Shown: positions 10,715 through 42,257 of the stretch, one piece after another | Layout of the letters: each line of letters opens with the position of its first letter | Numbering within the stretch: the stretch's first letter is position 1 | Origin: Thermodesulfobacteriota bacterium | GTDB taxonomy: Bacteria > Desulfobacterota_D > UBA1144 > Nemesobacterales > Nemesobacteraceae | DNA: 64,000 nucleotides | Direction of reading: 5' to 3' | NCBI GenBank assembly: GCA_965204665.1 | Contig: OZ242002.1 | Coordinates: 1,497,995 to 1,561,994 of the forward strand | Made by a program: the position numbers and the translations under genes | Notes under the pieces: model-generated | Databases searched by the model: none | What the model was told of the DNA's origin: nothing | Seen by the model: only the letters and a program-made list of their open reading frames with translations

Positions 10715-11854
10715 ATGACTTCCGAATTGGTTAAAAATATAGAACCCTTTTACGTAATGGAAGTTCTTGAGAGGGCGAAACGTCTTGAAGAAGGGGGTTG
10801 CGATGTAATCCATTTTGAGGTAGGAGAACCTGATTTTGCCACCTCTGCGGAGATATGCTCATCAGGGGCGAACTGGATAAAACAAGGATACACCAAATAT
10901 ACCGACAGTCTCGGAATTGACGAACTTCGCAGAACCGTTGCAGAGGATTACAGCAGCACATACGGGGTGGATGTAGGGCATGAAAGGGTGATAATAACAA
11001 TGGGGAGTTCACCCGCGCTTCTGATGTCGCTGCTCACGGTCGCCGACCCGGGAGATGAGATACTGATAACCGACCCGTATTACGCCTGCTATCCGCAGAT
11101 AATAAGCGTTGCAAGGGGAATTGCTAGAAAAATACCGATTTACCAAACTGATGGCTATCAGATTGATACCGGACGGGTGAGAAAAAACATCGGTCCTAAG
11201 ACAAAATCCATTCTGATCAACTCTCCGGCAAACCCCACAGGGGCTGTTATGAAAACGGAAATTCTACGGGAACTGTGCGATATGGGGCTTTTTGTAATCT
11301 CGGACGAGATATATCATGGTCTTGTATACGGCGCGCAGGCGGATTCGGTTCTGCAGTTTACTGAAAACGCGATTGTTATAAACGGTTTTTCCAAGTTTTA
11401 CTCCATGACGGGTTGGCGTTTGGGCTACATGATTGTTCCGAAGAAAATGGTGAGATATGTTCAGAAACTTCAGCAGAACCTTTTTATTTCTCCCGGGTCA
11501 TTTATCCAGAAAGCGGGAGTGACCGCTATCGAGAAAGTGAAAAAAGAGGGAGGATACAAGGAGATGGTGGCTGAGTTCGGCAGAAGAAGAGCGGAGATGA
11601 TAAAAGGGTTACGCTCAGTCGGGTTCGACATAGATATGGAACCCCTAGGGGCGTTTTACGTTTATGTCGACTGCTCGCGTTGGAGCAGAGATTCACTTAA
11701 TTTCGCATTTGATATTCTTGAAAACTGCCTTGTGGGAGTAACCCCGGGAACAGACTTCAGCGACAGGGGATCTGATCACCTGAGATTTTCCTACGCGACT
11801 TCGGTTGACTCTATAAGAGAGGGCATAAGGAGACTCGGGCAGTTTCTCAACTGA
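10715..11854 (+). CDS. Class I/II PLP-dependent aminotransferase
   Basis: SKFYSMTGWRLGY PLP-lysine region. Aspartate/aromatic aminotransferase-like, 379 aa. Confidence 0.85.
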   Translation: MTSELVKNIEPFYVMEVLERAKRLEEGGCDVIHFEVGEPDFATSAEICSSGANWIKQGYTKYTDSLGIDELRRTVAEDYSSTYGVDVGHERVIITMGSSPALLMSLLTVADPGDEILITDPYYACYPQIISVARGIARKIPIYQTDGYQIDTGRVRKNIGPKTKSILINSPANPTGAVMKTEILRELCDMGLFVISDEIYHGLVYGAQADSVLQFTENAIVINGFSKFYSMTGWRLGYMIVPKKMVRYVQKLQQNLFISPGSFIQKAGVTAIEKVKKEGGYKEMVAEFGRRRAEMIKGLRSVGFDIDMEPLGAFYVYVDCSRWSRDSLNFAFDILENCLVGVTPGTDFSDRGSDHLRFSYATSVDSIREGIRRLGQFLN

Positions 11855-11908
11855 ATTTTCCGAGAAAATCTTATTTTACGCTTCAGTAGTTTCCGCCGGT
11901 TTCGGAGG

Positions 11909-12712
11909 TTGAGTATGAACAGAAAACTCGTAGCGGGAAATTGGAAAATGAATCTTCTTCGCCGGCAGGCGGAAAGACTTTCCGCAGATGTGGTCAGCGT
12001 GCTCGGTTGTGATTACAGTCGTTGCCAGGTTGTGCTTGCGCCGCCGTATACAAGCCTTGATTCGGTACGCAGAAGCATTGAGGGTTCAACAGTGGAGTTG
12101 GGTGCGCAGAATGTTTATGAAGAACCTTACGGGGCGTTCACGGGAGAGGTGTCTCCAGAGATGCTTTCTGATGCCGGGTGCCGCTGGGTGATAGTGGGGC
12201 ATTCGGAGAGAAGACGCATTCTGGGAGAAACGGACAACCGGATAAACAAAAAACTACTGCTTTGTTTTCGCTGCAAACTCAGTGTGATTTTATGTGTGGG
12301 GGAGACCGCTGCGCAGAGAGAAAAAGCGGTTGCCGGCTGCGGTAAAAACAACGCCTTGCGTCGCAGACTTCTTTTTGAACCGATAAGAATGCAACTGGAG
12401 AGGGGGCTTGGGGGTGTTTCTCCGGAGATGACTTCCGATATCGTCATCGCTTACGAGCCTCTCTGGGCGATAGGTACGGGGAGGAACGCCACTTCACGGG
12501 AAATAACGGAAATTTCACTCTGGATAAGGGGATTTCTCTCTGATATGTTTTCTGATTCCGGCAGCAATATCAGAATTTTATATGGAGGAAGCGTTTCAGC
12601 AGGTAATATTCATAGTATAATGTCCGTTGATCAGGTGAGCGGGGTTCTTGTAGGAGGAGCTAGCCTTTCTGCGGACTCTTTTTCTGAAATAGTAAAATCT
12701 GTAGGGGGTTAG
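11909..12712 (+). CDS. tpiA: Triosephosphate isomerase
   Basis: NWKMN, GHSERR, AYEPLWAIGTG and YGGSV motifs. Confidence 0.9.
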   Translation: MSMNRKLVAGNWKMNLLRRQAERLSADVVSVLGCDYSRCQVVLAPPYTSLDSVRRSIEGSTVELGAQNVYEEPYGAFTGEVSPEMLSDAGCRWVIVGHSERRRILGETDNRINKKLLLCFRCKLSVILCVGETAAQREKAVAGCGKNNALRRRLLFEPIRMQLERGLGGVSPEMTSDIVIAYEPLWAIGTGRNATSREITEISLWIRGFLSDMFSDSGSNIRILYGGSVSAGNIHSIMSVDQVSGVLVGGASLSADSFSEIVKSVGG

Positions 12713-12715
12713 AAA

Positions 12716-13096
12716 TTGGAGTTTTTGATACCGTCTGTAAAAGTCATTCACATAATCGTCAGCATTTTCCTGGTGTTGATCATACTTCTTCAGCCGAGCA
12801 AGTCGGGAGATATAGGTTCCATGTTTGGAGGAGGAACATCTGAATCCCTTTTCGGTTCAAGCGGGGCTATACCTTTTCTTGTCAAGCTCACCAGGTTTTT
12901 CGGGCTTATCTTCGTGGTGACTTCGCTTTTCCTGGGATACGCCTCAATAAAATCCATGTCGGGCTCTGTAATAGATGACCAACAGACGCAGACAATTGAA
13001 GAATTCGAGGAAGTCTTGCCCGAGCGGCCGGAGCTGGAATCGGAGTCTGTAGAACAGACTCAATCCATTGATTCTGAGCAGGAGCCTGAGAAGTAA
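12716..13096 (+). CDS. secG: Preprotein translocase subunit SecG
   Basis: Lies immediately after tpiA. Two TM segments flank an LLQ...GGG...LFG glycine-rich loop. TTG start with a GGGGG RBS. Confidence 0.75.
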   Translation: MEFLIPSVKVIHIIVSIFLVLIILLQPSKSGDIGSMFGGGTSESLFGSSGAIPFLVKLTRFFGLIFVVTSLFLGYASIKSMSGSVIDDQQTQTIEEFEEVLPERPELESESVEQTQSIDSEQEPEK

Positions 13097-13182
13097 CCAT
13101 TTTTTATTTACATCTGCTCAGGTACAATCTAAGGATAAATAAGTAGACATGTTGCACATAAGCCAATTCGGAGGTCTTTCAG

Positions 13183-13449
13183 ATGGCATACATAATCGCA
13201 GAACCATGTATAAAGGTTAAGGACAAGTCATGTGTGGAAGCTTGCCCTGTCGACTGCATATACGATGCGGGCGACCAGCTGGTTATTCATCCGGAAGAGT
13301 GCATAGACTGTGGAGCGTGTGTTGACCCCTGTCCTGTGGACGCCATATTTCACGAAGATGACCTTCCCGAAAAATGGCAGGAATTCATTGATGTAAACAA
13401 AGATTTTTTTGAAGGCAAAGAGGGTCTTGAGCCTGCAAGAAACGACTGA
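13183..13449 (+). CDS. Ferredoxin with two CxxCxxC-type Fe-S cluster motifs (FdxA-like)
   Basis: [17 protein letters not shown] and [12 protein letters not shown] motifs. Confidence 0.85.
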
Positions 13450-13498
13450 ATCCGCAAGGGGTTAAGAAAAAGCGGAGAAATTACATGTTCTCTGTCCG

Positions 13499-14155
13499 TT
13501 GCTTGCCATGAGTACTGTGCACTTAAAGAACAAGGCGCGCAACCTGTTGCGGTTTCTTAAAAAAACCTACCCCGACGCACGATGTCACCTTGTCTACTCG
13601 AACCCGCTTGAACTTCTTGTGGGTTGCATTCTGTCGGCACAATGCACGGATAAGAGGGTAAATATGATAACCCCCGCACTTTTTTCCAGATACCCGGATG
13701 CAGCCGCTTTTTCCACCGCATCGGAGCAGGAATTACAAGAACGCATAAGGTCAACCGGTTTTTACAGAAACAAGGCGAGGGCTATAATAAATTGTTCGGC
13801 GGAGATAGTGCGCAAACACTCGGGAGAGGTTCCCGATACAATAGATGATCTCGTGAAACTGTCCGGAGTGGGAAGAAAAACCGCCAATGTGGTTGTCGGA
13901 AATTATTTTGGAAAACCCGGGATTATAGTCGATACCCATATTTCTAGGCTCAGCCGTCGCATAGGGATTACCCGGAACTCGGATCCGGTCAGAATCGAGT
14001 TCGACCTCAGAGAAGTTGTTCCGAAGAAGGACTGGACATTTTTTTCAAACTCCCTGGGAGACCATGGAAGAACTGTATGCAAGGCGAGAAAACCTATTTG
14101 TTCTGAGTGCGCGATAACCGGTATGTGCTCATATTTTCAGGATATGCATGCTTGA
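13499..14155 (+). CDS. nth: Endonuclease III
   Basis: HhH-GPD core (LVKLSGVGRKTANVV) plus a C-terminal Cx6Cx2Cx5C Fe-S cluster loop. Confidence 0.9.
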   Translation: MLAMSTVHLKNKARNLLRFLKKTYPDARCHLVYSNPLELLVGCILSAQCTDKRVNMITPALFSRYPDAAAFSTASEQELQERIRSTGFYRNKARAIINCSAEIVRKHSGEVPDTIDDLVKLSGVGRKTANVVVGNYFGKPGIIVDTHISRLSRRIGITRNSDPVRIEFDLREVVPKKDWTFFSNSLGDHGRTVCKARKPICSECAITGMCSYFQDMHA

Positions 14156-14182
14156 AGAAAAGAGTTTACTGCAGAGCGTGGG

Positions 14183-14389
14183 GTGAGTATGAGCGCTGAT
14201 TATTCAGGGTATTTTCCATTCGGGTGGATAAGATCCGAGGGCGGGGACAACCGGCAGATTTACTGGAGTGGAAAAACGGGGGAATTATACCTGAAAGCCA
14301 CAAAGACGGATGCGCTGGTAAAAGTCGCGGAAGCCGCGAGTTGGATGGAAGCCAAGAAAAAAGCAGACTTGCTTATAAAAGGAACCTGA
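14183..14389 (+). CDS. Small hypothetical protein
   Basis: 68 aa ORF in the nth-hydrolase gap with no recognisable motif. Confidence 0.3.
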   Translation: MSMSADYSGYFPFGWIRSEGGDNRQIYWSGKTGELYLKATKTDALVKVAEAASWMEAKKKADLLIKGT

Positions 14390-14494
14390 TTCTGTTTTAT
14401 CTGCGGTTCATGAGAACTGAGTTCAGTTCAGGATTTTGACTCGGACCGCAGATATTTATAATATCCGAATAATTTTTCATAACAGTTTCCAACG

Positions 14495-15397
14495 ATGAAA
14501 TATGTAGAACAGGAACTGCTTTTCATACCCGTCGGCAAGAGCGGAGTGAATGCTCTTTACTACAGAGCGCTTAACAACGATTCTGATAAGAGGAAGACCG
14601 TAATCATTCACATCCACGGTTTTCTGGGCAATTTTCTTGACGGAAGTCAGAGATTTTTACCTCCAATTCTCGCAAAGGCCGGCTATTCGTCTATCTCAAT
14701 TAACACCAGAATGGCGAATTTCGGACTTTTTTTCGGCTTCGGAATAGTGGACGAGACGGTTCCCCAGATAGACGGTGTAGTGAAATATCTGAAGGAAATG
14801 GGGTATGAGAATATTATCGTTTCCGGCTACAGTCTCGGTGGAGGCGTGGTTTTCAGATATCTTTCCCTCAAAAGCCTCACGGACGGCTTGGAGAACGACA
14901 GTACCGTAAAGGGTGTCATAGCGCTTGCCACCCCGTATTCAATTCCCGATTCCGTAAAGAGAAGATGGAACAAGTGGGGAAGCATGCCGTCCTATGATGA
15001 AATGTATCAGGAGGCTGGGGAGATACTCGGCGATGACCCGCACAAATCAAAACAAGACAGGACCGTGCTTATTTTCAGGGCCAGAGGGGATTCCTACCGG
15101 CCGGAACACACGGAGATATACACTTACAAGACCTGGTGGTTTCTTGCGGGGCCGGAAGCGGAAGCGGTAAAAAGTTACAAGCAGATAAAAAACATAAAAC
15201 TGCCGATTCTGCTCATACAAGGCTGGGAGGACGAGTTTGTAAAGCCTGATGAAGCCTACAACCTCGCTCAAATAGCTATAGATAATGGAAACGACGATGT
15301 TTCCGCATATTACCTGAACACCGGACACACGCTCGACGGAAAAAAAGAGGAACTCGGCGACATTATAATAAGATGGCTTGACAGAAGATTCGTCTGA
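14495..15397 (+). CDS. Alpha/beta-fold hydrolase (GYSLGG nucleophile elbow), tandem paralog 1
   Basis: GxSxG motif. Shares blocks (NTRMA, TYKTWWF, GxxDxxV) with the next gene. Confidence 0.7.
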   Translation: MKYVEQELLFIPVGKSGVNALYYRALNNDSDKRKTVIIHIHGFLGNFLDGSQRFLPPILAKAGYSSISINTRMANFGLFFGFGIVDETVPQIDGVVKYLKEMGYENIIVSGYSLGGGVVFRYLSLKSLTDGLENDSTVKGVIALATPYSIPDSVKRRWNKWGSMPSYDEMYQEAGEILGDDPHKSKQDRTVLIFRARGDSYRPEHTEIYTYKTWWFLAGPEAEAVKSYKQIKNIKLPILLIQGWEDEFVKPDEAYNLAQIAIDNGNDDVSAYYLNTGHTLDGKKEELGDIIIRWLDRRFV

Positions 15398-16307
15398 TTA
15401 CGCCATGGTGAAAGAACAGAAGACTCTGCTCACTTACAGGACTGAAGACGGGTTCGATGTGAATTCCCTGCTGATTACTCCGGAGTTCTCCTCAGAGGAG
15501 GAACTCTACAACGCTCCTGTAATCATCAACCTTTACGGGGTGTTGGGGCATTTTCTCACAAGAGGGACTCCTGTGACGCTTCCCCCTCTTCTCAGAGAGA
15601 AAGGTATAAGTACTCTCTCGGTAAATACCCGGATGGCGTTTATGGGGCAGATAATGGGGGAAGGCATATTCCCCGAGACTATTCAGGAGATGAGGGAGTC
15701 GGTGAGCGTTCTTCAGAGAGAAGGGTTTCAGAACATTTTCATGCTGGGTTACAGTCTGGGGGCGAGCATGGCCGTCTACTATTCGCACATAACCGATTCT
15801 CAAGGCATAAAGGGGCTTGTTCTTGAAGGCTGTTCCTATTCTCTTCCCTATTCCCAGCAAAGAAGACTCGAGAGAAATAAAAGTATTCCTTCTTATGATT
15901 CTATTTACCGAAAGGCGAAAGAAGTTCTCGGTCCCGATCCGGAAAAAAAGAGAAACGATCAAATCTTTATTGTCTACAGGGCGTGGGGGAATTCGTTTAA
16001 CCCTGTAGATGCGGAGATGTTCACCTACAGAACATGGTGGTTTATGAGAGGACCTGATGCATACTACGCAAAAACCTGCGAGATAATAAAGGATGTCAGA
16101 GTTCCTGTACTCTTCATACACGGGGTAAATGACGATATAGTTGATGTTTGGGAACCCAGAGAACTCAAAAATATAATGAATCGAGCCGGGAACGAGCATA
16201 TAACCCTGCGGTATATACCCGGAGCGAAACATGACTGCGTTGAGAACCCCGAAGAAGCGATAAAGGTCATAACCGAATGGATATCACAGGTGAACGCTTA
16301 CTCTTAA
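15378..16307 (+). CDS. Alpha/beta-fold hydrolase (GYSLGA), tandem paralog 2
   Basis: Paralog of the 14495-15397 gene and overlaps it by 20 nt. An alternative start at 15405 is possible. Confidence 0.7.
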   Translation: MTEDSSDYAMVKEQKTLLTYRTEDGFDVNSLLITPEFSSEEELYNAPVIINLYGVLGHFLTRGTPVTLPPLLREKGISTLSVNTRMAFMGQIMGEGIFPETIQEMRESVSVLQREGFQNIFMLGYSLGASMAVYYSHITDSQGIKGLVLEGCSYSLPYSQQRRLERNKSIPSYDSIYRKAKEVLGPDPEKKRNDQIFIVYRAWGNSFNPVDAEMFTYRTWWFMRGPDAYYAKTCEIIKDVRVPVLFIHGVNDDIVDVWEPRELKNIMNRAGNEHITLRYIPGAKHDCVENPEEAIKVITEWISQVNAYS

Positions 16308-16440
16308 GGATGTTTTTTTGCAACAGCATATTGCAAAAAAGAAAAATTCATATACCTTAAACCGCTTCAGATTAAAAGGTCTATCTTTTTTGGCGTATTC
16401 CGATTGAATATCCGCGCCAGAGAATTTGGAGGCAAAAACC

Positions 16441-18003
16441 ATGTCCGAGAATTTTTCAATCAAGAAGGAACTTTCCGAAAAACACGATCTTGAATCTCCG
16501 TCGGAAGTCTACTACAACCTTCCTGTTCCCACCCTTTACGAAGAAGCGATCAGAAGAGGGGAGGGGAGGATCGGTGAAGGCGGAACCTTTGTGGGTTATA
16601 CATCTCCTCACACGGGCAGGTCTCCGAAGGACAGGTTCATCGTAAAGGAGCCGTCGACGGAGAACGACATAGACTGGGGCGTTGTTAATAAGCCGGTCGC
16701 TCCGGAGGTCTTCGACCATTACTACCGCAAAGTGATGGAGTATTTCAAGGGGAGGGATGTTTTCGTAAAGGACCTCCAGGTATGCTCCCACCCGGACTAC
16801 AGGACCGACGTAAGGATTATAAACGAATTCGCCTGGCATAATATATTTGCGAACAACCTTTTTCTCAGAACCGATTCATCCGAGTGTCCTCACAGAGAAG
16901 TGGGTTTCACGGTCATTTCCGCACCGGGATTCAAGGCGGATGATTTTAAGGATCACGGTATCAACAGTGAGACATTCATACTGCTTAACCTCGGTCGGAG
17001 AATCGCTCTTATAGGCGGTACGCGCTATGCAGGAGAGATGAAGAAATCTGTTTTCGCCGCAATGAATTTTCTGTTACCCGAAAAAAACGTATTTCCCATG
17101 CACTGCTCGGCCAACGTAGGCAGGGACGGAGATGTAGCGCTTTTCTTCGGACTGTCGGGAACCGGAAAAACAACCCTTTCAGCGGACCCCGAAAGGGCTC
17201 TTATCGGAGATGATGAACACGGTTGGTTCGATGGAGGGGTTTTCAACTTCGAGGGCGGATGCTACGCGAAGATGATAAAACTCAACCCCGATACCGAGCC
17301 TGAGATATACCGCGCGGCGCTTAAATTCGGTTCGGTTCTGGAAAACGTGAAACTTGATCCGAAGACCGCAAAAATAAATTTCGACAGCGATAAGTATACG
17401 GAAAATACCAGGGGCGCCTATCAGATTGATATGCTCGACAACATCGTTGCGGATGGAGTCGGTGGAGTTCCCAAGAACATCTTTATGCTGACCTATGACG
17501 CTTTTGGAGTTCTGCCGCCGATATCGAAACTTGATTCCGATCAAGCCATGTATTATTTCCTTCTGGGTTATACCGCGAAAGTAGCCGGTACCGAAAGAGG
17601 GGTGAGTAAGCCGCAGGCCACATTCAGTTCCTGTTTCGGTTCTCCTTTTCTTCCGAGATCTCCCAGGTTTTACGGACAGATGCTCAAGCGGAGAATGGAA
17701 AGCAACAGTGATGTGAAAGTCTGGCTTCTCAACACCGGTATTTCAGGCGGACCTTTCGGCGTGGGTAAGAGAATGCCTCTTCCGTCTACAAGGGCTCTTG
17801 TCACATCCGCCGTATCGGGCGAACTGTTCAAAAGAGAATTCATCAGGGTTCCGATACTTAATTTATCAGTACCAGCAGATTGTCCGGGAGTTAACTCGAA
17901 GCTTCTTCAGCCCAGACTTTCCTGGGATGATCAGGATGAGTACGACAGAAAAGCTGAACAACTTTCAGAACTTTTTGAAAAAGAATACCGCAAATATCTT
18001 TAA
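16441..18003 (+). CDS. pckA: Phosphoenolpyruvate carboxykinase (ATP)
   Basis: Kinase-1a GLSGTGKTTLS and PEPCK-ATP signature blocks. ATG at 16441 with GGAGG 8 nt upstream. The ORF-track start at 16426 is a TTG. Confidence 0.9.
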   Translation: MSENFSIKKELSEKHDLESPSEVYYNLPVPTLYEEAIRRGEGRIGEGGTFVGYTSPHTGRSPKDRFIVKEPSTENDIDWGVVNKPVAPEVFDHYYRKVMEYFKGRDVFVKDLQVCSHPDYRTDVRIINEFAWHNIFANNLFLRTDSSECPHREVGFTVISAPGFKADDFKDHGINSETFILLNLGRRIALIGGTRYAGEMKKSVFAAMNFLLPEKNVFPMHCSANVGRDGDVALFFGLSGTGKTTLSADPERALIGDDEHGWFDGGVFNFEGGCYAKMIKLNPDTEPEIYRAALKFGSVLENVKLDPKTAKINFDSDKYTENTRGAYQIDMLDNIVADGVGGVPKNIFMLTYDAFGVLPPISKLDSDQAMYYFLLGYTAKVAGTERGVSKPQATFSSCFGSPFLPRSPRFYGQMLKRRMESNSDVKVWLLNTGISGGPFGVGKRMPLPSTRALVTSAVSGELFKREFIRVPILNLSVPADCPGVNSKLLQPRLSWDDQDEYDRKAEQLSELFEKEYRKYL

Positions 18004-18093
18004 CCTCGCGGCAAAAAACTTTTTCTCCGAGCAGTGATGAACTCGAATCCTTGATTTATTTTTACCGCGGAGGTCCGCCTGAATTTTCTCGTA

Positions 18094-18171
18094 TGGCGTC
18101 CCCGAGGGGATTTGAACCCCTGTTACCGGCGTGAAAGGCCGATGTCCTAGACCTGACTAGACGACGGGGAC
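18094..18171 (-). tRNA. tRNA-Glu (anticodon TTC), CCA encoded
   Basis: Reverse complement GTCCCCGTCGTCTAGTCAGG...CTTTCAC...GGTTCAAATCCCCTCGGGGACGCCA folds as a cloverleaf. Confidence 0.85.
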
Positions 18172-18182
18172 ATAAAAAGACA

Positions 18183-18255
18183 TGAGCCGTACAGGATTCG
18201 AACCTGTGACCCACTGCTTAAAAGGCAGTTGCTCTACCAGCTGAGCTAACGGCTC
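18183..18255 (-). tRNA. tRNA-Lys (anticodon TTT)
   Basis: Reverse complement GAGCCGTTAGCTCAGCTGGTAGAGC...CTTTTAA...GGTTCGAATCCTGTACGGCTCA. Confidence 0.85.
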
Positions 18256-18532
18256 GTAAACGGCGGGATGATACCATAAAAGCTGCTGTTGTCAAAAACC
18301 GGAATCTGATACGATTTGACCTGTCGATGGAACCTCCGTAAATTCTTATGCGTGCCGATATTCGTATTCATCGGTATATGGCCCTGAAGGAAGTTTGGAA
18401 ACCCTACGGAGCCGATGCCCGTTACTGGTTTCGATCATTGATGTTTCCGGCTCTCAATACCTCGGTCACGGGTTGGAAACACCGCTCTTCAACTATGAGA
18501 TATGCGGACTATTTCTATAAGGAAGTGTAATC

Positions 18533-21355
18533 ATGCGCCTGTCGTGGAATGAGGTCCGCATCAGGGCTGCCTCTTTCGCCGAGGAATGGAAGGATGCGAC
18601 CTACGAGAAGGGCGATACACAGAGTTTCTACAACGATTTTTTCGAAGTGTTCGGAGTTCGTCGGCGAAGCATCGCACGCTACGAGGAGCATGTCGCGAAG
18701 TTGAATGACAGCTCCGGATTCATCGACTTATTCTGGCCGGGCGTTCTCATCGTCGAACAAAAGAGCGCCGGGCGCGACCTGAAGGCAGCCTACGAACAGG
18801 CCGGCGAGTATTTCGACGCTTTGTCCGAAAACGAACGCCCGCGCTACATCCTCGTCAGTGACTTCCAGACCTTCGATCTTCACGACCTCGACGAGCGCGG
18901 AAAGGTCTCCTTTCCACTCGCGGACCTGCCCAAGCGTATCGAAGCGTTCAGTTTTATATTGGGTGTGCAGCGCAGGACCTTCCGCGATCAGGACCCGGCG
19001 AACATCGAGGCCGCCGAACTGGTCGGGCTGCTTCACGATGCGCTCGGAGACACCGGGTACAGCGGGCATGACTTGGAGCAGTTCTTGGTGCGGATTGTCT
19101 TCTGCCTGTTTGCCGACGACACGGGTATCTTCGAGCCGCGCGACCTCTTTCTTGATTTCCTTGAAGAACGTACCGGCGAGGACGGGGCAGATCTCGGTCC
19201 GCGACTTGCACAACTGTTCCAGGTCCTGGACACTCCGGAGGTCGAGCGTCAGAGCACGCTCGATGAAGACCTCGCATGTTTTCCTCATGTAAACGGCGAA
19301 CTATTCAAGGGGTCTCTGCGCATTCCGGCGTTTGACTCGGCGATGCGCACTGCACTGCTGAATGCCTGTCGCTTCGACTGGTCGAACATCTCACCCGCAA
19401 TCTTCGGAGCGCTTTTCCAGTCTGTGATGGAACCGGCGGAACGCCGCGCCCGGGGTGCGCATTACACGACCGAAAAGAACATCCTCAAAGTGATCGAACC
19501 ACTTTTCATGGACGGCCTGCGCGCCGAGTTTGAGCGGATCAGGACGCGGCGCGGACGCAACCGTCTCGCCCTGCTTCGTCAATTCCATGCAAGTCTCGGC
19601 AGTCTGACGTTCTTCGACCCCGCGTGCGGTTGCGGCAACTTCCTCATCATAGCCTACCGTGAACTGCGCCTGCTGGAAATCAAGGTCATCCAGGAGATCA
19701 GGAATGCCACCTTCACGACCCGATATAGAGAACTCAATGTCGTCTGGCAATCTGTGGTGGATGTGGACCAGTTCTACGGAATCGAGATCGGAGAGTTCCC
19801 CGTTCGCATAGCTGAAACGGCGCTTTGGATGATGGATCACATCATGAACAACCAGCTGAGTCTTGAGTTCGGCCAGAGTTTTGTTCGTATCCCGCTTGAG
19901 AAGTCGCCGCACATCCTTCACGAGGACGCGCTGGAAGCAGACTGGTCGGACCTGTTGCCGCCGGGCGAGTGCTCCTTCGTACTTGGGAACCCGCCTTTTG
20001 TCGGGGCGAAGTATCAGACACCGGAGCAGCGCGCTCAGGTGCACGGGGTCGCGATGCTGGGCAAGAGCGGCGGCACGCTGGATTATGTCTCCGCATGGTT
20101 CATCAAGGCGGGCGAGTACGTGAAAGGTGAAAATGTCCGCATCGGCTTTGTCGCGACCAATTCGATCACCCAGGGCGAACAGGTCGCGCAGCTCTGGCCG
20201 ATCCTGTTCGAGCGTTGTCGGATGGAAATCGCCTTCGCGCACCGGACCTTCGCTTGGGGGTCGGACGCGCTGGGCAAAGCGCATGTCCATGTCGTCATTC
20301 TCGGCCTTGACCGCCGCGAGGCAGTACCGTCGGATAGGCGTCTGTTCAGTTATCCCGACATAAACGGCGAACCGGAAGAAAGCCGCCACGCTGCGCTGTC
20401 TCCCTATCTTTACGATGCCGCGGGGCTGTCGGACCCGCATCTGACGGTGCGGGAGGAAAACCGGCCGATCAACGGGATGCGGAGACTGATTATCGGTTCC
20501 CAACCCATCGACGGCGGCAACTACATATTCGATGAGCAGGACCGCGCCGCGTTTCTTGATGCGGAGCCGGATGCCTCACCCTATCTTCGACCTTTCATAG
20601 GGGCGAAAGAATACCTACAGGGCGGCAAGCGTTGGATTCTGGCTCTGCACGATGTGCCGCCCGATGCGCTGGCGCGTCTGCCGCGCGTACGCGAGCGGAT
20701 CGTTGCGGTTCAGACCTATCGCCGGAAGAGTAACCGTAAATCGACTCTGAATCTTGCCGAGACTCCTATGCTCTACCAGGTCAATCTTCTTCCCACCGAA
20801 CCGTTTCTGTTGATTCCTCGGGTCAGTTCCGAGCGGCGGGAATATGCGCCCATCGGCTGGCTGGAGCCGCCGGCTATTCCCAGCGATGCCGCGCTTGTGC
20901 TTCCTGAAGCCACCTTGGAGGATTTCGCGCTGTTGACTTCTGCGATGCACATGACGTGGCTGCGCCATGTCGGCGGGAGACTTGAGAGTCGCTACCGCTA
21001 TTCCATCGGCCTTGTGTACAACACTTTCCCGTCGCCTCCTGCAGGCGCGGACCTGTCGAAGTTACGACCCCTGGCGCAAGCCGTGCTCGATGCCCGGGCC
21101 GATCATCCAGGTGCAACACTAGCCCGCCTGTATGATCCCGTCCTTATGCCGCCGAACCTGCGCCGTGCGCATCAAAAACTTGACCGTACGGTGGACCGGC
21201 TCTACCGGCGTACCGGATTCAGGTTCGAGTATGAGCGTGCGGAACATCTGTTCTTACTCTATGAGAAGATGCTCGCACCGCTGCACGCCGGTCGGAAGAA
21301 GACGCGACGGCGCCGACCGGGGAGGGTCGTACCGATGAAAAGAGCGAGTTGCTGA
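18533..21355 (+). CDS. MmeI-family Type IIL restriction-modification enzyme (single-chain endonuclease + gamma-class N6-adenine methyltransferase + TRD)
   Basis: N-terminal D-x9-ExK nuclease motif (IDLFWPGVLIVEQKSAG). MTase motif I FFDPACGCGNFLI and motif IV GNPPFVG. Family blocks NSITQGEQV, GGRLESRYRYS and LVYNTFP. The gene is strongly GC-rich compared with its neighbours. Confidence 0.8.
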   Translation: MRLSWNEVRIRAASFAEEWKDATYEKGDTQSFYNDFFEVFGVRRRSIARYEEHVAKLNDSSGFIDLFWPGVLIVEQKSAGRDLKAAYEQAGEYFDALSENERPRYILVSDFQTFDLHDLDERGKVSFPLADLPKRIEAFSFILGVQRRTFRDQDPANIEAAELVGLLHDALGDTGYSGHDLEQFLVRIVFCLFADDTGIFEPRDLFLDFLEERTGEDGADLGPRLAQLFQVLDTPEVERQSTLDEDLACFPHVNGELFKGSLRIPAFDSAMRTALLNACRFDWSNISPAIFGALFQSVMEPAERRARGAHYTTEKNILKVIEPLFMDGLRAEFERIRTRRGRNRLALLRQFHASLGSLTFFDPACGCGNFLIIAYRELRLLEIKVIQEIRNATFTTRYRELNVVWQSVVDVDQFYGIEIGEFPVRIAETALWMMDHIMNNQLSLEFGQSFVRIPLEKSPHILHEDALEADWSDLLPPGECSFVLGNPPFVGAKYQTPEQRAQVHGVAMLGKSGGTLDYVSAWFIKAGEYVKGENVRIGFVATNSITQGEQVAQLWPILFERCRMEIAFAHRTFAWGSDALGKAHVHVVILGLDRREAVPSDRRLFSYPDINGEPEESRHAALSPYLYDAAGLSDPHLTVREENRPINGMRRLIIGSQPIDGGNYIFDEQDRAAFLDAEPDASPYLRPFIGAKEYLQGGKRWILALHDVPPDALARLPRVRERIVAVQTYRRKSNRKSTLNLAETPMLYQVNLLPTEPFLLIPRVSSERREYAPIGWLEPPAIPSDAALVLPEATLEDFALLTSAMHMTWLRHVGGRLESRYRYSIGLVYNTFPSPPAGADLSKLRPLAQAVLDARADHPGATLARLYDPVLMPPNLRRAHQKLDRTVDRLYRRTGFRFEYERAEHLFLLYEKMLAPLHAGRKKTRRRRPGRVVPMKRASC

Positions 21356-21597
21356 ATCCTGATCTGTGAGTCGACCATTGCTCTCTCTGATGGAACACAT
21401 GCCTCCGAAAAATATTAAGTTCGATTTGTCAAAAATTCCTAATGGATAGAGCGGAGTTTCGTGGTCATCAAGATTAGATGACCGGGAAAACTGCACTCAG
21501 GAAGACAAACGGTAACATCCGTTCTGAATGTGGAAACTACAGGATTAATCGTATAGCATATCATCTTTGAACCGGGAATCTTCTGCTGAAAATCTTC

Positions 21598-22770
21598 ATG
21601 ATTGATTTTATAAAAGAATACAGGGACTTTTCTCTGATCACAGTTGCAAATTTATTTTTCCAGTGCGGATTCACTTCGTTCTTTCTGCTGCCTCTTTTTA
21701 TAAGGGATATGGGTGGCGACATGGCTTATGTTGGTTATGTAATGGGGATTTTCGGAGTAGCATCGGTCGGCACTGCTCCTTTTGCGGGTCTTCTTATAAA
21801 TCGATACGGGCAGAAAATATTCATGCTCGGAGGTTCTGTGCTGATGTTCGTAGCGTACTTAGTTCATATATTCATAACAGATACCGGGATTTCCCTGCTT
21901 GTCCTAAGACTTGTGCAGGGCATCGCCTTCGGTTTCTTCTTCACCGCGGCTTCCACTGCGGTTGCCTACTCGGTTCCACGAAAAATAAGACATTCGTGTC
22001 TCACTACCTTCAGTCTTACGACCATAGCATGCTTTGCGATAGGTCCTTTTTTCGGTGAAATCATCATTTCCAAGATCAGTTACAAAATGTTTTTTGTATA
22101 TGCCGCGCTTTTTAATGTGGTAGCGTTTATATTCTGCTTTTTTTCAAATGAAGTGAAGTTTTTGGTAACTCATGCGAATCCGTTTTCAGGATTTTTCAAC
22201 ATCATTAAATCTGAAAGATTCCGCGTACTTATTTTTATGAATATGATGACCGGTGCGGCACTGGGAGCATTGGTTCACTTTTTTCATTTGTTTTTGAATG
22301 ACAAGGGTCTTCAAATGGGAGTTTTTTTTGTTATTTTCGCCGCAACGGCGGTGCTGATCAGAATTATGGGAGGGAATATCCTGAACATTACGGAGAGAAG
22401 AAAAATAGCGCTTCCTTCAATAGTGCTGATGGCTATCGCCATCATCATAGCATTCTCCGTAGACTCTTTTTCCCATCTTGTTCTGTTCTCCATTCTGTTC
22501 AGTCTCGGTTACTCCTTTACCTATCCTACTATAAGTACCATGTTTATAGACAGAACAACGGCGGGAGAGCGGGGAACGGCAATGGGTATCTTCAATATGG
22601 CGTACGGGACGGGGATAAACTCCTGTGCTATAATACTCGGACTTATATTACGCGATTACGGATTCCTTGTAATGTACATATCGGCGGGAATGTTCTTGAT
22701 TTTCGGGTGCGTTATCTTCATTTACAAATATTTTATAAGCATTGAAGAAGAGGAGCCTGTATTTGAATAA
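21598..22770 (+). CDS. MFS transporter, tandem paralog 1
   Basis: 12-TM profile. N-terminus MIDFIKEYRDFSLITVANLFF... parallels the next gene. Confidence 0.75.
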   Translation: MIDFIKEYRDFSLITVANLFFQCGFTSFFLLPLFIRDMGGDMAYVGYVMGIFGVASVGTAPFAGLLINRYGQKIFMLGGSVLMFVAYLVHIFITDTGISLLVLRLVQGIAFGFFFTAASTAVAYSVPRKIRHSCLTTFSLTTIACFAIGPFFGEIIISKISYKMFFVYAALFNVVAFIFCFFSNEVKFLVTHANPFSGFFNIIKSERFRVLIFMNMMTGAALGALVHFFHLFLNDKGLQMGVFFVIFAATAVLIRIMGGNILNITERRKIALPSIVLMAIAIIIAFSVDSFSHLVLFSILFSLGYSFTYPTISTMFIDRTTAGERGTAMGIFNMAYGTGINSCAIILGLILRDYGFLVMYISAGMFLIFGCVIFIYKYFISIEEEEPVFE

Positions 22771-22916
22771 CCGAATGATGCGGTTTCCGTCCGCCCTGCG
22801 TCTATAAGGTTCTTTTTCATCACTGGTCCGGAGTCGCGGAACCGGTCTTGCGGGGAAGTGGAGAGTCAGAGACCGGTAATTTCCACCATATCTGTCCCGA
22901 CGGCAGTTTTTTTGAG

Positions 22917-24068
22917 ATGATTTCCAGAGAATACAGGGATTTTCTTCTAGTAACTCTAGGTAATTTCTTCTTTTTCTGCAGTTTTTCTTCATTCTTCCTG
23001 TTGCCGCTTTTTATAAAGGACATCGGGGGTGATGAATCTCACATAGGGTACGTTATGGGGACTTTCGGTATAACCTCAATAGGAACTATTCCCTTTATCT
23101 CCTATCTGATAGACCACTACGGGCGGAAAAAATTCATGCTTGCGGGTTCATTCCTGATGTTCATCGCATCTTTTCTCTACATTTTCATATCTGATATAAC
23201 CGTAGGAATATTCATTCTGAGGCTTATGCAGGGAATCGCGTTCTCGTTCTTCTTCACTTCTGTCGCTACTGCGGTTTCCGATTACCTGCCGAAAAAGACG
23301 AGAGCTTACGGGCTCGGTATTTTCGGCGCGTTTACCATAGCATCTTATTCAGTAGGCCCTTTTCTCGGGGAGTTTTTGATAGAGAAATCCAATTATGAAT
23401 CTTTTTTTATCTGCGCTTCGTGTTTCAGTGTATTTGCCTTTATTCTCTGTTACTTTTCAAGGGAAGGAAATTTTATTGTCTCCTCGAAGTCCGTCTTCAG
23501 CGGATTTTTCAGCGTAGTTCTTTCTCCGAGGTTCCGCACACTCCTGCTTGTAAACTTGATAGTTGCCGTCGGGCTCGGCTCCATGCTCAATTTCTTCTCC
23601 GTTTTTCTCAGAGAAAACAGAATAAGCGCAGGAAGTTTTTTCACCACTTATTCTGTGACCGTGATACTTGTAAGGGTCCTGGCCGGAAAACTTCCGGATA
23701 TGTTCGAGAGAAGAAAAGTTGCTCTGCCTTCAATGCTGGTGATGGCCGCAGCGTTGCTTTCCGTATTTTCTGTAACATCATGGAGCACCGCTGTCGCAGT
23801 TTCTTTTATTTTCAGTCTGGGCTACGGAATTCTTTACCCTTCTTTAAGCGCGATGATTATCGACAGGGCGCGTGATGATGAAAGAGGAACGGCCATGGGA
23901 TCGTTTAATATGTCCTTCAGCGTCGGTATAAACCTATTCGCTTTCATGCTCGGACTTATAGCTCGGGATTACGGTTTTTCCACCATGTATTCAGTGACCG
24001 GTGCGCTTGTACTTGCCGGTTGCGTCATTTTCACCTATAAATACTTTTTCAGTCCGGTCAGGGGGTAG
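22917..24068 (+). CDS. MFS transporter, tandem paralog 2
   Basis: ATG at 22917 (MISREYRDFLLVTLGNFFF...) is a paralog of 21598-22770. The ORF-track start at 22848 is probably an extension. Confidence 0.75.
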   Translation: MISREYRDFLLVTLGNFFFFCSFSSFFLLPLFIKDIGGDESHIGYVMGTFGITSIGTIPFISYLIDHYGRKKFMLAGSFLMFIASFLYIFISDITVGIFILRLMQGIAFSFFFTSVATAVSDYLPKKTRAYGLGIFGAFTIASYSVGPFLGEFLIEKSNYESFFICASCFSVFAFILCYFSREGNFIVSSKSVFSGFFSVVLSPRFRTLLLVNLIVAVGLGSMLNFFSVFLRENRISAGSFFTTYSVTVILVRVLAGKLPDMFERRKVALPSMLVMAAALLSVFSVTSWSTAVAVSFIFSLGYGILYPSLSAMIIDRARDDERGTAMGSFNMSFSVGINLFAFMLGLIARDYGFSTMYSVTGALVLAGCVIFTYKYFFSPVRG

Positions 24069-38223: not shown

Positions 38224-39124
38224 CTATTCTAAGCAATAAAACAATTTTTTCCGTGCACAAGGGATTTGTGCTGTTTTTGGTTCCTGTATCTTATCGCCCG
38301 TCGAACCAGGAGTTTTCAGTTGTTGTCTATTGTACAGATGCAGGCTGTTCTAAATGACAAAATTACGCCGAGCAGATCCTGTTTCCTTGCTGAGGCATTT
38401 TATCCCGAGTCCGAATTACGATCTGGGTGTCCCGAAACCGCTACCAACCGACAGTTATAAAGATTCCATCACGAGAACTGAATATTCTCGGGGCAGACCT
38501 CGACGGTGACGGAAACCGGCGTGCGTTATCAACTGCAGCGGCTGAAGCCTGACCCCAGAGAACATAACGTGGATTTACACACGACTGGAGCAGAGCATAT
38601 ATAATCTCTTCGGCGTTATTGTCGGCGAATGCGGGGGTGAGTCGACATGGGTCAGACGCGTGACGCATTGCGCACACTGATATATACCCCACTGCCGCCG
38701 GTCGGGAGGGAAATATTGGCTGAGCTCAGGGAGAATCTGGACACTCTGAAACTGGACTTCTCAGACCTCAATGCCTCCTGCGACATCAGGGCGCGGGCGT
38801 ATTCGGCGCTGAATACCGAATAACGATGGGATACAGGTTAAAAGCGAAAAAGCCGCCGAGTAAGAAGCCTTTTAACCGCGGGAAATCCTTGGCGACCAAT
38901 CACCGGAGCCTGCTGAAGAAAAAACAACGCGAGACGGCGGACTCAGTCTGCAATCTGGCAATTGAGACTGTGAGAGTATCAAGAGAAAGATCGTTAAAGA
39001 ATAAACCGATTGTCAGGAATACGTCTGTTTTTTTTGAAGGAACAGGTTGAAAATCTTCCGGATCAGGTTCTACACCCCCAAATCCGGTGTCATAATGTTG
39101 AAACAGGAGATTTCTACCCCCGTT

Positions 39125-40615
39125 TCACGCCGTCTGCGGACCGTAAACACTCCTCCCCGCGCAATACTCCCTGAATTTTTCCACACCCGGGATGTTCAAA
39201 ACCCGGGTCAAGTTGTAAGTCAGCGTCATCAGACTGAACTCTCCCCTGCACTTCTCAAGTCCCCGCATAAGAAACTGATGAAAACCGTTTCCGACCTTCA
39301 ATGTTCCGAACAGATGTTCAACAATTCTCCCCCGCTTCCTGATCTTCTCTTCTCCCTGTTCCATTCTCCGCCTGTGCCTCTCAAGCACTTCATGGTGTTC
39401 CCATCTTTGTATCAATCTGACTTGCTTCTCACCGATACAATGCCTGCGCATCGAACACGCCCTGCAGTCCGCACTTCTGCTTGTATATATAGTGTACCTC
39501 TTCCCATTTCTAACCCTTGGTTTTACGCGGGGGTCAGCCTCCTGCCCTGCGGACAATGATAACAATCCTCTCCGGCATCGTAAGTGAATTCGTCAAGACT
39601 GTAACGCCCCCGTTGTTTCATTCTCGAACTGTTGTCGGGAACAGGAACATAGACTGTAATGTCCTCATCCTCGCACCGCTTCAGTTCCATGCTCTCGTAA
39701 TAACCTCCGTCAGCCAGTCCTGTCAATTGTTCCGTATCAAGACTTTTCTTCGCTTCCGTAAGCATCCCGGCCAGTTGATGGTTGTCCGTGCCGTCCTGAA
39801 CCACATTCTCGGCAACTACAAGCTTGTGCTTCGAATCCACCGCTATCTGCGCGTTGTAACCCGCCACGCTCTGCCCCCGCTTCCTGAGCAGCCTCGCGTC
39901 TTTGTCCACCTTTGACACCTGAGTGTCACCACTTCTCTCCATGCGGTCCTTAGTCTCCCGATTCTCCTTCTGACGCTTCTTCAACTTCTCTATCTTCTCC
40001 CTCAACATCTTGTCGTTGCCCGCATCCTGTCTTCCCGCCTTCTCATCAGCGGCGTCAGCCTCCTCAAGTTCCTGCTGATACTCTTCTATCCTGCTCTCTA
40101 TATTCTCCAATTCCCTGTCTATATACCCTCGGGTCCGTATGCTTGCCCTGCTCGCGTCCGCAGAAAAGAAAGAACCGTCGACCGCCACCTCATCCCCGCC
40201 GAACAGGGATAACTCCCTGCACAGCAGAACAAAATCCCTGTTGACCTTCCTCAGTTGCGCCGCATGGTTCTTGCGGAAATCAGCAATGCTCTTGTAAGAC
40301 GGCCGCATCCCTTTCACCAGCCAAATCACTTCGAGATTCCTTCCGGTCTCCGCTTCCAGCTTGCGGCTGCTGCGTATACCATGCTGATATCCGTAAAGAT
40401 GCAAGCTTCAACATCGCCCACGGATTATAGGGAGGCTGCCCCGCTGTGGTGCCGGCCTCGGTATGCCTGAATCCCATGGAAGACAGATCAAGAGTGTCGA
40501 CGTAGGCATCAAGCGCCCGAACCTGGTGGTTCTCTCCGACATAGTCTTCCACTCTCTCGGGCAGAAGCAGTGTTTGTCCTCGGTCAAGTGCGGGTTTGTA
40601 TCGGCGTCGGTTCAT
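39125..40615 (-). pseudogene. IS1182-family (IS5 superfamily) transposase interrupted by two frameshifts
   Basis: Three consecutive ORFs in different frames together give about 497 aa: InsH-N-like (MLKL...YGYQHGIRSSRKLE), a coiled-coil middle, then a DDE/C-terminal YHCPQGRRLT...C..C..C segment. The shifts are near 40390 and 39540. Confidence 0.75.
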
Positions 40616-40756
40616 TGCGTATTACACCTCGGTATCAAGAATATGGAGTAATCGTACCTTAAGAAAGAGGATATATCAACACCTAACTGCATGTAATGCA
40701 AAGATAATTATGCTGTTGTATCAGCCGAGGGGGGGGGGATGAGGAAATCAGATTCT

Positions 40757-40829
40757 GTAAAAACATCTCGGTTCCGAGATATATGCTGAACAATGCAGAA
40801 TCTCAGAATACTTTCACAGTCTCAATTGG
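40757..40829 (+). repeat. Copy of Fic-gene 5' module (promoter + first 11 codons MQNLRILSQSQ), truncated
   Basis: Matches 56469-56538 (+) and 54630-54714 (-). The ORF stops after 17 codons here. Confidence 0.7.
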
Positions 40830-40940
40830 GGCAATCCTGCTAAAAAGTGACCTCAAATAAGCCCTGCCGTTTAAGTCGCGTTCACCGCGGAGGCGCTCAA
40901 AACGCTCTCCTCGGGCGTCTTTCCGTCTTTTCTCCCGAAC

Positions 40941-42257
40941 TCAGTCCACGAATTTATATAGGGTTGACGTACGGATTGAATTTCCTGTGGCGTCATCCTG
41001 CACATCAAATAAATTGTCTGATCCTATAGTGATCGTGCGACCCGATCCTGTCACCGTAGACCCGTTTGGAAAACCTTTGAACTGAAGTATATCGTTCTGA
41101 GAGGCGTTAAAGTCTTTAATATTATCCTTGTTGCTTCTGTGCGCGTACCTGATTTGAAAGGTGTCGGCACCGGCACCGCCCGTAAGAGTATCGGCACCGG
41201 CTTGTCCGTCGATCAGATCATTTCCGCCTCTTCCGTCAAGGGTATCGTTCCCGGCTAACCCGTCTAAATAATTTCCCAGGTTGTCTCCATTAAGAGTATC
41301 ATTTCCGTGTCCACCGAAAAGGTTCTCAATACCTGTAAATGTAATCGATCCTCCTCCATGACCACCGGCGTCAAAAGTCCCCGCGGCAAGATCAACGGTT
41401 CCAGCTGTATTATTTTGTGCGGAACGGATAAAACCATCCTTCACGGCCTGTATTCCCAGGCGGGGATCATCAGTTTGAATGCTCTCTAGGATTATAGCAT
41501 CACCAGTTTGCCGACCATTCCTGACAGCAGTTCCTATCGGGGGGCCGCCGTTAAAGGTGTCGTTGCCTTTACTGTTGACGAGATAAAATATATCTGCCCC
41601 GTCTCCACCGTTGAGCGTATCATTGCCTTCGCCGCCATGGAGAATGTCCCGCCCCGCATCGCCGTTGACCGTATCATCGCCGTCTACTCCCCGGATGAAA
41701 TCAATGCCGTCTCCGCCATGTAGGGTGTTAGCGCCGGCGTTGGCCCAGATGACATCCTCTCCATCTCCGCCATAGATGACGTCATCGGTAGTTTCCGTGC
41801 CTATGCTGCCTGCAACCTGAGCATCGACTTTGTCATCTCCGTCTTCACCGTATATCGTATCCGTGCCGGCACCACCGGCTATCGTGTCGTTTCCGGCACC
41901 ACCGTAAACAGTATCATCTCCGGCTCCGGCACTGATGTTGTTCACGTACTGATTTCCGCAGATGATGTCGTCATCTCCAGTCCCCGTGATATTATTGGAG
42001 ACACCGGGCAGAGCATTTATACCGTTGCTCACGTCGCATCTGGGGTCACCGAAGGATTTTCCCTGATCTCCCTGCGGGCCCGCCGCTCCCTGTGTTCCCG
42101 AGTCTCCTTTATCACCCTTATCTCCTTTCGCCCCGTCTTTACCTGCCGGACCTGTTTCCCCCTTCGGGCCTGCCGGCCCCATATCCCCTTCACAGGCAGC
42201 AAGGAAAACCGCTCCGCCGAGCAGAAACAACAACACTAAGAAATTACGTGACTTCAT
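40941..42257 (-). CDS. Lipoprotein with collagen-like Gly-X-Y repeats and RTX calcium-binding repeats, paralog 2
   Basis: MKSRNFLVLLFLLGGAVFLAACEGDMGPAGPKGETGPAGKDG... followed by GGAGxDT repeats. It is more diverged than paralogs 1 and 3 but has the same architecture and the same C-terminal YKFVD ending. Confidence 0.85.
   Translation of the reverse strand: MKSRNFLVLLFLLGGAVFLAACEGDMGPAGPKGETGPAGKDGAKGDKGDKGDSGTQGAAGPQGDQGKSFGDPRCDVSNGINALPGVSNNITGTGDDDIICGNQYVNNISAGAGDDTVYGGAGNDTIAGGAGTDTIYGEDGDDKVDAQVAGSIGTETTDDVIYGGDGEDVIWANAGANTLHGGDGIDFIRGVDGDDTVNGDAGRDILHGGEGNDTLNGGDGADIFYLVNSKGNDTFNGGPPIGTAVRNGRQTGDAIILESIQTDDPRLGIQAVKDGFIRSAQNNTAGTVDLAAGTFDAGGHGGGSITFTGIENLFGGHGNDTLNGDNLGNYLDGLAGNDTLDGRGGNDLIDGQAGADTLTGGAGADTFQIRYAHRSNKDNIKDFNASQNDILQFKGFPNGSTVTGSGRTITIGSDNLFDVQDDATGNSIRTSTLYKFVD

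Follow-up and report, generated by a model that had tools for sequence, protein, structure and literature searches.

MmeI of Methylophilus methylotrophus (crystal-structure chain PDB 5HR4), which recognises TCCRAC and cuts 20/18, is the prototype of the Type IIL restriction-modification (RM) enzymes. MmeI-type enzymes cut about 20 nt from their site and protect the host by one-strand methylation, as published (PMC2582602, PMC2731913). NmeAIII (GCCGAG), SdeAI (CAGRAG), EsaSSI, AquIII and MchCM4I share the same scaffold and carry combinatorial changes in the target recognition domain (TRD) (PMC2731913, PMC2731914, PMC4833311). A homologous architecture of methyltransferase plus TRD is found in PglX of BREX and DrmMI of DISARM; these lack the N-terminal PD-ExK nuclease and operate in multi-gene systems. 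As for how such genes travel, Furuta, Abe and Kobayashi gave a systematic description in 2010 of small RM units that lie between direct repeats or target duplications, are missing from the same site in relatives and, for Type IIG genes, differ between alleles in their TRDs (PMC2853133). Here we analyse an MmeI-type gene located next to two tRNA genes in a 64,000-nt stretch of contig OZ242002.1 (the window; all positions below refer to it), which comes from a metagenome-assembled genome (MAG).

We consider it very likely that this gene constitutes a single-gene RM cassette of about 3.1-3.2 kb (18301 to about 21435-21521) acquired horizontally by a Dadabacteria-type bacterium. Besides one intact MmeI-family Type IIL gene, the cassette would bring a sigma-70-like promoter of its own and a leader of ~185 nt, and it would have landed in the short spacer that runs from the -35 box of the tRNA-Lys/Glu promoter to an MFS transporter gene. 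The coordinates of all features are collected in the table.

The gene is a single intact open reading frame (ORF) without frameshift or internal stop. The sequence-only reading had assigned its product the single-chain MmeI layout of a D-x9-ExK nuclease, an NPPF gamma-class methyltransferase and a TRD, and Pfam, the structural alignment and PADLOC agree on this. All five MmeI Pfam domains match in the expected order (PF20464, PF20465, PF20473, PF20466, PF20467; E 1e-23 to 4e-81), the 940-aa protein is collinear with 5HR4 across residues 1-919 (E 1.5e-269; about 50% identity over the full length), and the PADLOC model for Type IIG enzymes (REase_MTase_IIG) is matched over its full length with 1132 bits. 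The nuclease motif D65-x9-E75-x-K77 is intact (nt 18725-18763, in FIDLFWPGVLIVEQK) and aligns to D70/E80/K82 of MmeI. Also intact are the SAM motif I FFDPACGCGNF (aa 360-370, nt 19610-19642) and motif IV NPPF (aa 486-489, nt 19988-19999). There is just one one-residue gap in the helical-spacer region of the MmeI alignment, and from the match in this spacer a reach similar to that of MmeI (about 20/18 nt) is expected. Outside the specificity residues, the protein differs from MmeI in lacking 5 residues ahead of the nuclease motif, in having 5 extra residues in TRD-N and in ending with a basic C-terminal tail. By every criterion that sequence can address, the protein is an MmeI-family Type IIL single-chain RM enzyme. 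By analogy with MmeI, the TRD would bind an asymmetric 6-bp site, the NPPF methyltransferase domain would protect host DNA by methylating a single strand, at the adenine of position 5, and the N-terminal nuclease would cleave DNA that lacks this mark, with the cuts about 20/18 nt downstream. Such a single polypeptide would need no separate M or S gene.

The gene neighbourhood consists of tRNAs, PEPCK and MFS transporters. Like MmeI, the gene has no partner methyltransferase: its neighbours include neither a separate M or S gene nor a component of BREX or DISARM. This bears on the possibility that the gene encodes a methyltransferase only, be it an orphan or a PglX-like or DrmMI-like component, or that it is a decaying relic. 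Models of BREX PglX and DrmMI do give weak partial matches over the methyltransferase and TRD part, and motif avoidance is not seen in the window. However, the PglX match scores 20 bits against a cut-off of 900, the nuclease domain is complete with its D-x9-ExK motif intact, the 940-aa ORF is unbroken and the partner genes of BREX and DISARM are not found nearby. We therefore regard this alternative as improbable.

The base composition sets the gene apart. Its GC content in 300-bp sliding windows is 0.56-0.63, against 0.38-0.48 in both flanks and ~0.47 in the remaining window. Compared with the 41 other ORFs of the window, the gene is an outlier both in overall GC (0.590 vs 0.480±0.028, z 3.9) and in GC at third codon positions (GC3; 0.696 vs 0.503±0.036, z 5.3), the latter being the top value among all ORFs. 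CGC, CTG and CCG codons are enriched two- to five-fold, while AAA and ATT are depleted; CGC occurs 37 times per 1000 codons as compared to 7.6, and AAA 7 as compared to 36. Two long antisense ORFs of 370 aa (19391-20503) and 186 aa (18728-19288) lie within the gene. Neither has a Pfam match, and they are by-products of high GC, as GC-rich coding DNA would give. A GC-rich gene unlike its flanks, unusual codons and long antisense ORFs were what the sequence-only reading had pointed to as signs of horizontal acquisition, and each of these signs, as well as the acquisition itself, is borne out by these figures and by the comparison with relatives that follows. Elsewhere in the window, GC is elevated (0.505-0.515) and the GC skew strongly negative at 39000-42300, and in codon usage the minus-strand ORF at 39523-40404 deviates more than any other ORF of the window and slightly more than the MmeI-type gene.

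PEPCK, the upstream neighbour of the insert, identifies the host as a Dadabacteria-type MAG; NCBI names such genomes 'Candidatus Dadabacteria' or 'Thermodesulfobacteriota'. For comparison we used 80 PEPCK loci with flanks of up to 10 kb; some 30 of them are syntenic (63-91% PEPCK identity). The closest species representative is OZ220467.1, with 91% aa identity in PEPCK. Gene order in the about 30 loci is hydrolase, hydrolase, PEPCK, a variable segment, tRNA-Glu/Lys, MFS1 (in some), MFS2, TrmI and GidB. A tblastn search (E<1e-10) of the 80 loci, including the ~30 syntenic ones, finds no MmeI homologue. The PEPCK locus of OZ220467.1 (L001) is an empty site: the window aligns to it on the left at 18083-18300 (L001 16600-16817, 89.5% identity) and on the right at 21522-21799 (L001 16911-17199, 78% identity), and 93 bp stand in L001 in place of the 3221 bp of the window between these matches (18301-21521). 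Because the gene is a GC3 outlier, is absent in ~30 syntenic relatives and has an empty site in L001, horizontal acquisition in the lineage of the window is confirmed.

Two alternatives deny this acquisition. According to the first, the gene is ancestral at the locus and was deleted in L001 and other relatives. Only one close genome provides an empty site, and OZ220467.1 itself carries an MmeI-type gene. However, about 30 losses would otherwise be needed, given the absence of the gene in syntenic loci spanning 63-91% PEPCK identity, and together with the codon anomaly, GC3 being 5 standard deviations above that of host genes, this makes a gain in the lineage of the window far more parsimonious. 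The gene copy in OZ220467.1 is elsewhere in the genome and only 74.8% identical at the nucleotide level, vs 82-89% for flanking housekeeping genes; the left junction is sharp and adjoins a repeat that is single-copy in L001. Ancestry followed by loss is highly improbable on these grounds. According to the second, a GC-rich fragment of another community member was joined into the contig during assembly or binning. The source is indeed a MAG, the composition of the insert is sharply different and the exact protein is known from one contig only. Against an artefact, both flanks run into syntenic Dadabacteria sequence on one contig of a reported 1.98 Mb, the insert lies precisely within an intergenic spacer, an independently assembled sister genome has a cassette with the same leader and tail, and the GC3 of 0.70 falls between that of the contigs of the closest homologues (0.84-0.87) and that of the host (0.50), which fits residence in the lineage. 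We give the artefact next to no credence.

The horizontally acquired cassette has a well-defined left side. Its junction is fixed within 5 bp and adjoins a putative promoter of the tRNA operon (TTGACA-16-TATCAT; its function is suggested by sequence), so that the cassette, transcribed divergently from that operon, adjoins its promoter side. A spacer of 277 bp separates the tRNA-Lys 5' end from the ORF start; it contains a conserved non-coding leader with a promoter-like element, followed by about 185 nt of leader and an AAGGAAG ribosome-binding site. On the other side, 242 bp separate the ORF end from the start of the MFS transporter gene (21598). Both junction zones contain the 10-bp direct repeat TTGTCAAAAA, which occurs just twice in the 64 kb when both strands are searched and is single-copy in L001. 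By shuffling, the chance probability of its presence in both zones is about 0.007, and 3/285 positional controls reach the same result. The repeat corresponds to the -35 region of the promoter and is not tRNA sequence. It may be a target duplication, microhomology used in illegitimate recombination, or chance (roughly 1 in 100). Three further candidates for elements of the insert were rejected. Of the sole inverted-repeat pair spanning the ends (18309-18324 / 21539-21554), the right arm belongs to sequence that the empty site also has; a 60-codon leader ORF (18349-18531) is not conserved in the related cassette described below (L084); and for a remnant in the leader of a 104-aa HTH_31 gene (HigA/C-protein-like), tblastn gave no match (best E 0.13), with stops in all frames of the L084 leader.

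Integrases and transposases are absent among the neighbours of the gene, and 11 mobility proteins from related loci, including both integrases linked to the closest homologue (P0002), have no tblastn match in the 64 kb. The sequence-only reading was thus right about the lack of an integrase. It had also found no flanking direct repeat, and this does not hold, since TTGTCAAAAA flanks the insert at 18289-18298 and 21426-21435. As for the adjacency to tRNA-Glu and tRNA-Lys that it had proposed, both tRNAs are real, but the gene is on the 5' (promoter) side of these minus-strand genes, not at their 3' end. These findings bear on whether the insert could be the remnant of a classical integrase-mediated, tRNA-targeting genomic island that has since lost its integrase. 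Like such islands, it shows a compositional anomaly (GC3 z 5.3) and is absent from close relatives; two tyrosine integrase genes are found some 1.3 kb away from P0002, and RM-integrase units integrating into tRNA genes are known (PMC2853133). However, the position at the tRNA promoter side, the repeat derived from a promoter and not from a tRNA, the insert size of ~3.2 kb, too small to hold an integrase as well, and the lack of matches to mobility proteins all argue otherwise, and we judge an island remnant very improbable. For the single-gene cassette, the likeliest route would be a recombinase-independent or trans-mobilised insertion leaving or using the 10-bp repeat; in later spread from strain to strain, the conserved tRNA genes may have served as anchors for homologous recombination.

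The sister genome OZ220467.1 contains a related cassette at another locus (L084). It encodes a 940-aa homologue, P0035, with 77% aa and 74.8% nt identity to the window gene. The P0035 gene is solitary; on one side it has two minus-strand tRNA-Ala genes, whose promoter side it adjoins, as in the window, and on the other homoserine dehydrogenase. Its GC is 0.54 vs 0.44 in the flanks, and its GC3 is 0.605 vs 0.39-0.45. This locus is empty in the relative L089, where Peripla_BP_6, two tRNA-Ala genes, 138 bp and the homoserine dehydrogenase gene (hom) follow one another; L089 is too diverged (75% aa identity in hom) for base-level junctions at the sister cassette. The two cassettes have in common the leader with its promoter, the last 26 nt ahead of the ATG and the first 15 nt past the stop codon. 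The basic tail that follows the C-terminal domain (aa about 916-940; PLHA..KKTR..MKR.S) is likewise common to the two proteins and occurs in no other homologue inspected, and the leader is absent from all GC-rich homologues compared. A metagenome scan with the leader pattern GATTTGACC-N13-TCCGTAAATT returned one match only, in L088 (248-279). There, TTGACC-N17-TAAATT precedes an unrelated, secreted-looking ORF on a GC-rich soil contig; we reject it as a further cassette, and the match is probably chance or a generic promoter. The L088 site is ~130 bp from an apparent minus-strand tRNA gene fragment.

The history of these two copies is not straightforward, and several observations weigh against a cleanly delimited cassette descending from one Dadabacteria ancestor. 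No match to 21371-21521, the zone of the right junction, is found in the empty site or in the sister cassette, and 21436-21521 aligned to the L001 spacer gives no signal (z -0.7). Over most of their length the window protein (P0001) and P0035 are each closer to P0002 than to one another, a neighbour-joining tree does not group P0001 and P0035 as sisters, and the segments they share are seen only by sliding windows. A single ancestral Dadabacteria cassette would consequently require later recombination or fast divergence. The candidate target repeat of the sister cassette, ATATATACA, has 9 nt and is not significant alone. In TRD-N, P0035 ranks below 110 of 120 homologues as a neighbour of the window protein. 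Between the two genomes, housekeeping genes show 82-89% nucleotide identity, more than the cassettes (74.8%). We infer that the cassette backbone is resident and mobile in the lineage and that its internal segments were later replaced by recombination. The two landings next to tRNA promoters are suggestive of a site preference, although these may equally be tolerated sites and there are two cases only. Each Dadabacteria copy has a direct repeat of 9-10 bp at its flanks, that of 9 nt being the candidate just mentioned. On a bolder view, which we think unlikely, the two copies would represent a recombinase-free mobile unit of promoter and single gene that preferentially enters spacers just upstream of tRNA promoters and swaps TRD segments as it moves; entry might proceed via microhomology with the TTGACA/A-tract region or via breaks made by the enzyme itself.

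The region of the sister cassette is variable in other strains as well. In L090 (1428-4680) and L091 (258-4680), an Eco57I/MmeI_Mtase-like gene, an IS110 transposase and a 235-aa unknown ORF are situated between two tRNA-Ala genes; the Eco57I/MmeI_Mtase-like gene has 641 aa and is shortened to 300 aa in L090. Strains with an identical homoserine dehydrogenase differ upstream of that gene (L090, L091 and the L089 region). A SacI-like endonuclease is encoded at L089 9783-11302, with an N6_N4 methyltransferase a few kb downstream.

We have predicted the recognition site of the window enzyme by transferring MmeI residue numbers through the alignment and applying the rules of PMC2731914 and PMC4833311. 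The other characterised MmeI-family enzymes were compared through these published residue rules. The specificity residues are I642, Q645, R723, Q737, V738, R751, V752, D773, A774, L805, E806, R808 and R810 (MmeI numbering). Mutagenesis has validated the residue rules for positions 3, 4 and 6 (PMC2731914, PMC4833311). At position 3, R751/D773 (E/N in MmeI) would specify G, being the natural counterpart of the engineered change E751R/N773D that converts C to G (PMC2731914, PMC4833311). The residue pairs for positions 4 (A774/R810) and 6 (E806/R808) are identical to those of MmeI, predicting R and C, respectively. Position 5 would be the target adenine, as the hydrophobic residues V752 and L805, which contact the base opposite it, are conservatively kept. 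Position 1 is probably C: Arg or Lys at 723 correlates with C:G, and R723/Q737/V738 stand here in place of A/F/Y in MmeI. For position 2 we call no base, I642/Q645 (Y/K in MmeI) having no stated precedent in PMC2731914 or PMC4833311; the authors of the latter stress that the position 2 code is ambiguous (PMC4833311). The predicted site is therefore C-?-G-R-A-C, where ? is position 2, well supported at positions 3-6 and tentative at position 1. It does not amount to the site of SdeAI with position 6 switched, since SdeAI has F/M at the positions of 642/645, compared to I/Q here.

Two points qualify this prediction. The assignment of position 1 is a correlation only, and V738 differs from the Glu usual for C:G. 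Moreover, CAGRAC, CCGRAC, CGGRAC and CTGRAC occur in the window at observed-to-expected ratios of 0.91-1.06, that is, with no depletion, although depletion is not required; the motif counts neither support nor refute the predicted site. The residues of P0035 (S723/H737/I738, I642/K645, R751/D773, A774/R810, K806/D808) predict a different site, G-(A or C)-G-R-A-G. The 120 closest homologues (75-80% identical) show 24 different combinations of specificity residues, which fits the family's habit of changing specificity via a few TRD residues. None of the 120 shares the combination of the window protein, RQV / IQ / RD / AR / ER.

The family is very large: we recovered at least 8000 homologue candidates, all with E<1e-50. 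The proteins nearest to that of the window are merely 78-80% identical. Among these, the four with retrieved surroundings are encoded on GC-rich contigs (gene GC3 0.84-0.87), in neighbourhoods that include IS1595, two tyrosine integrases and a conserved 104-aa HTH_31 gene, in some cases together with HigB. Homologues are also found in 275 plasmid records (best identity 64%) and in a few phages. The contigs of the nearest homologues and the plasmid records are further evidence for horizontal acquisition. The HTH_31 gene is situated about 50-60 bp before the MmeI-type gene in L081 (652-966), L086 (738-1052) and L087 (3625-3939), in two of these cases with a HigB-like toxin gene upstream; the Dadabacteria cassettes are without it. 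The HTH_31 protein may be a controller (C-protein-like) or part of a co-travelling toxin-antitoxin pair.

Table. Features of the MmeI-type cassette and its surroundings, in window coordinates
Feature	Position	Strand	Basis and remarks
tRNA-Glu (anticodon TTC)	18094-18171	-	ARAGORN; native neighbour, outside the insert; tRNA pair kept in ~30 relatives
tRNA-Lys (anticodon TTT)	18183-18255	-	ARAGORN; native; 5' end toward the cassette
Putative sigma-70-type promoter of the tRNA-Lys/Glu operon	18268-18295	-	TTGACA-16-TATCAT, TG extension, 11/12 consensus positions
Direct repeat TTGTCAAAAA, left copy, 10 bp	18289-18298		Overlaps the tRNA -35 box
Left insertion junction	18301-18305		Fixed within 5 bp; L001 homology stops at 18300, L084 homology starts at 18306
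Conserved non-coding cassette leader	18306-18383	+	77% identical to L084 7791-7868, E 3e-11
Promoter-like element TTGACC-17-TAAATT	18316-18344	+	Promoter scan; inside the leader; sigma-70-like
Ribosome-binding region (AAGGAAG)	18507-18532	+	Upstream of the ATG; L084 nucleotide homology from 26 nt before the ATG
MmeI-family Type IIL (IIG) RM gene, 940 aa	18533-21355	+	Pfam, 5HR4 alignment, PADLOC
N-terminal PD-(D/E)xK nuclease domain	18563-19045, aa 11-171	+	PF20464, E 1.4e-43
Helical spacer domain	19067-19306, aa 179-258	+	PF20465, E 4.9e-26; whole 75-position model covered
Gamma-class N6-adenine methyltransferase domain	19568-20347, aa 346-605	+	PF20473, E 3.9e-81
TRD	20435-21040, aa 635-836	+	PF20466, E 8.5e-64
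MmeI C-terminal domain	21059-21277, aa 843-915	+	PF20467, E 4.2e-23
Zone holding the right insertion junction	21371-21521		L084 homology stops at 21370; L001 homology resumes at 21522
Direct repeat TTGTCAAAAA, right copy, 10 bp	21426-21435		Candidate right junction
MFS transporter gene	21598-22770	+	Pfam MFS_1 and synteny; native downstream neighbour; 88% aa identity to L001

Across Dadabacteria relatives, insertions recur in the PEPCK-tRNA-MFS interval, a hotspot where different genomes carry IS66, IS256/Mutator, IS3-type (rve), IS605 OrfB/TnpB and HTH_29 (IS630-like) elements; inserts are located at L010 13559-14506, L017 12134-13603, L019 11830-13137 and L023 12105-13277. In L001 itself, a 5-kb insert (11661-16556) lies between PEPCK and the tRNA-Glu 3' end, that is, on the opposite side of the tRNAs. 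It encodes an IS66-family transposase of 628 aa, overlapped by a DruA/DUF4338-like gene (297 aa), and has a 482-aa ORF without family match. The IS66 and DruA-like pair is present again in the same chromosome (L084 16584-18283) and looks like a multi-copy element with the DruA-like gene as a passenger or accessory gene. The window and L001 are alone in having both tandem MFS genes (window 21598-24068) on one side of the tRNA pair; most relatives among L002-L029 have the pair between MFS1 and MFS2 or are without MFS1. This order implies a local rearrangement in the lineage of the window and L001. MFS1 appears fragmented in L016 and L022 (about 12100-13100). Finally, L015 has a GC-rich single-gene insertion between TrmI and GidB (13854-16665; GC 0.64 vs 0.51 for the locus), an 808-aa ORF with a TonB-dependent receptor plug domain.

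How does the cassette compare to the small RM units of PMC2853133? Like these, it is an RM gene within an intergenic region that is otherwise conserved; a relative has the site empty, a short direct repeat flanks the insert, and the TRDs vary. Unlike these, it has no linked integrase, transposase or inverted repeats, and it is beside tRNA promoters and not in a tRNA gene. Its occurrence as a small repeat-flanked RM insertion is known territory (PMC2853133), and the finding leaves the understanding of the MmeI family unchanged. What it adds is modest: a combination of specificity residues not seen among the 120 closest relatives, a precisely mapped left junction with a 10-bp repeat, and a sibling cassette at another tRNA promoter. 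If active, the enzyme could add a C?GRAC-type cutter and methylase to the Type IIL toolbox, and its residues R723/Q737/V738 and I642/Q645 would provide a natural data point for the poorly understood position 1 and 2 code. For the host lineage, the cassette documents traffic of defence genes into Dadabacteria, an uncultured lineage with small genomes, where the spacers around tRNA genes have been hit repeatedly by RM genes and insertion sequence (IS) elements of at least six families.

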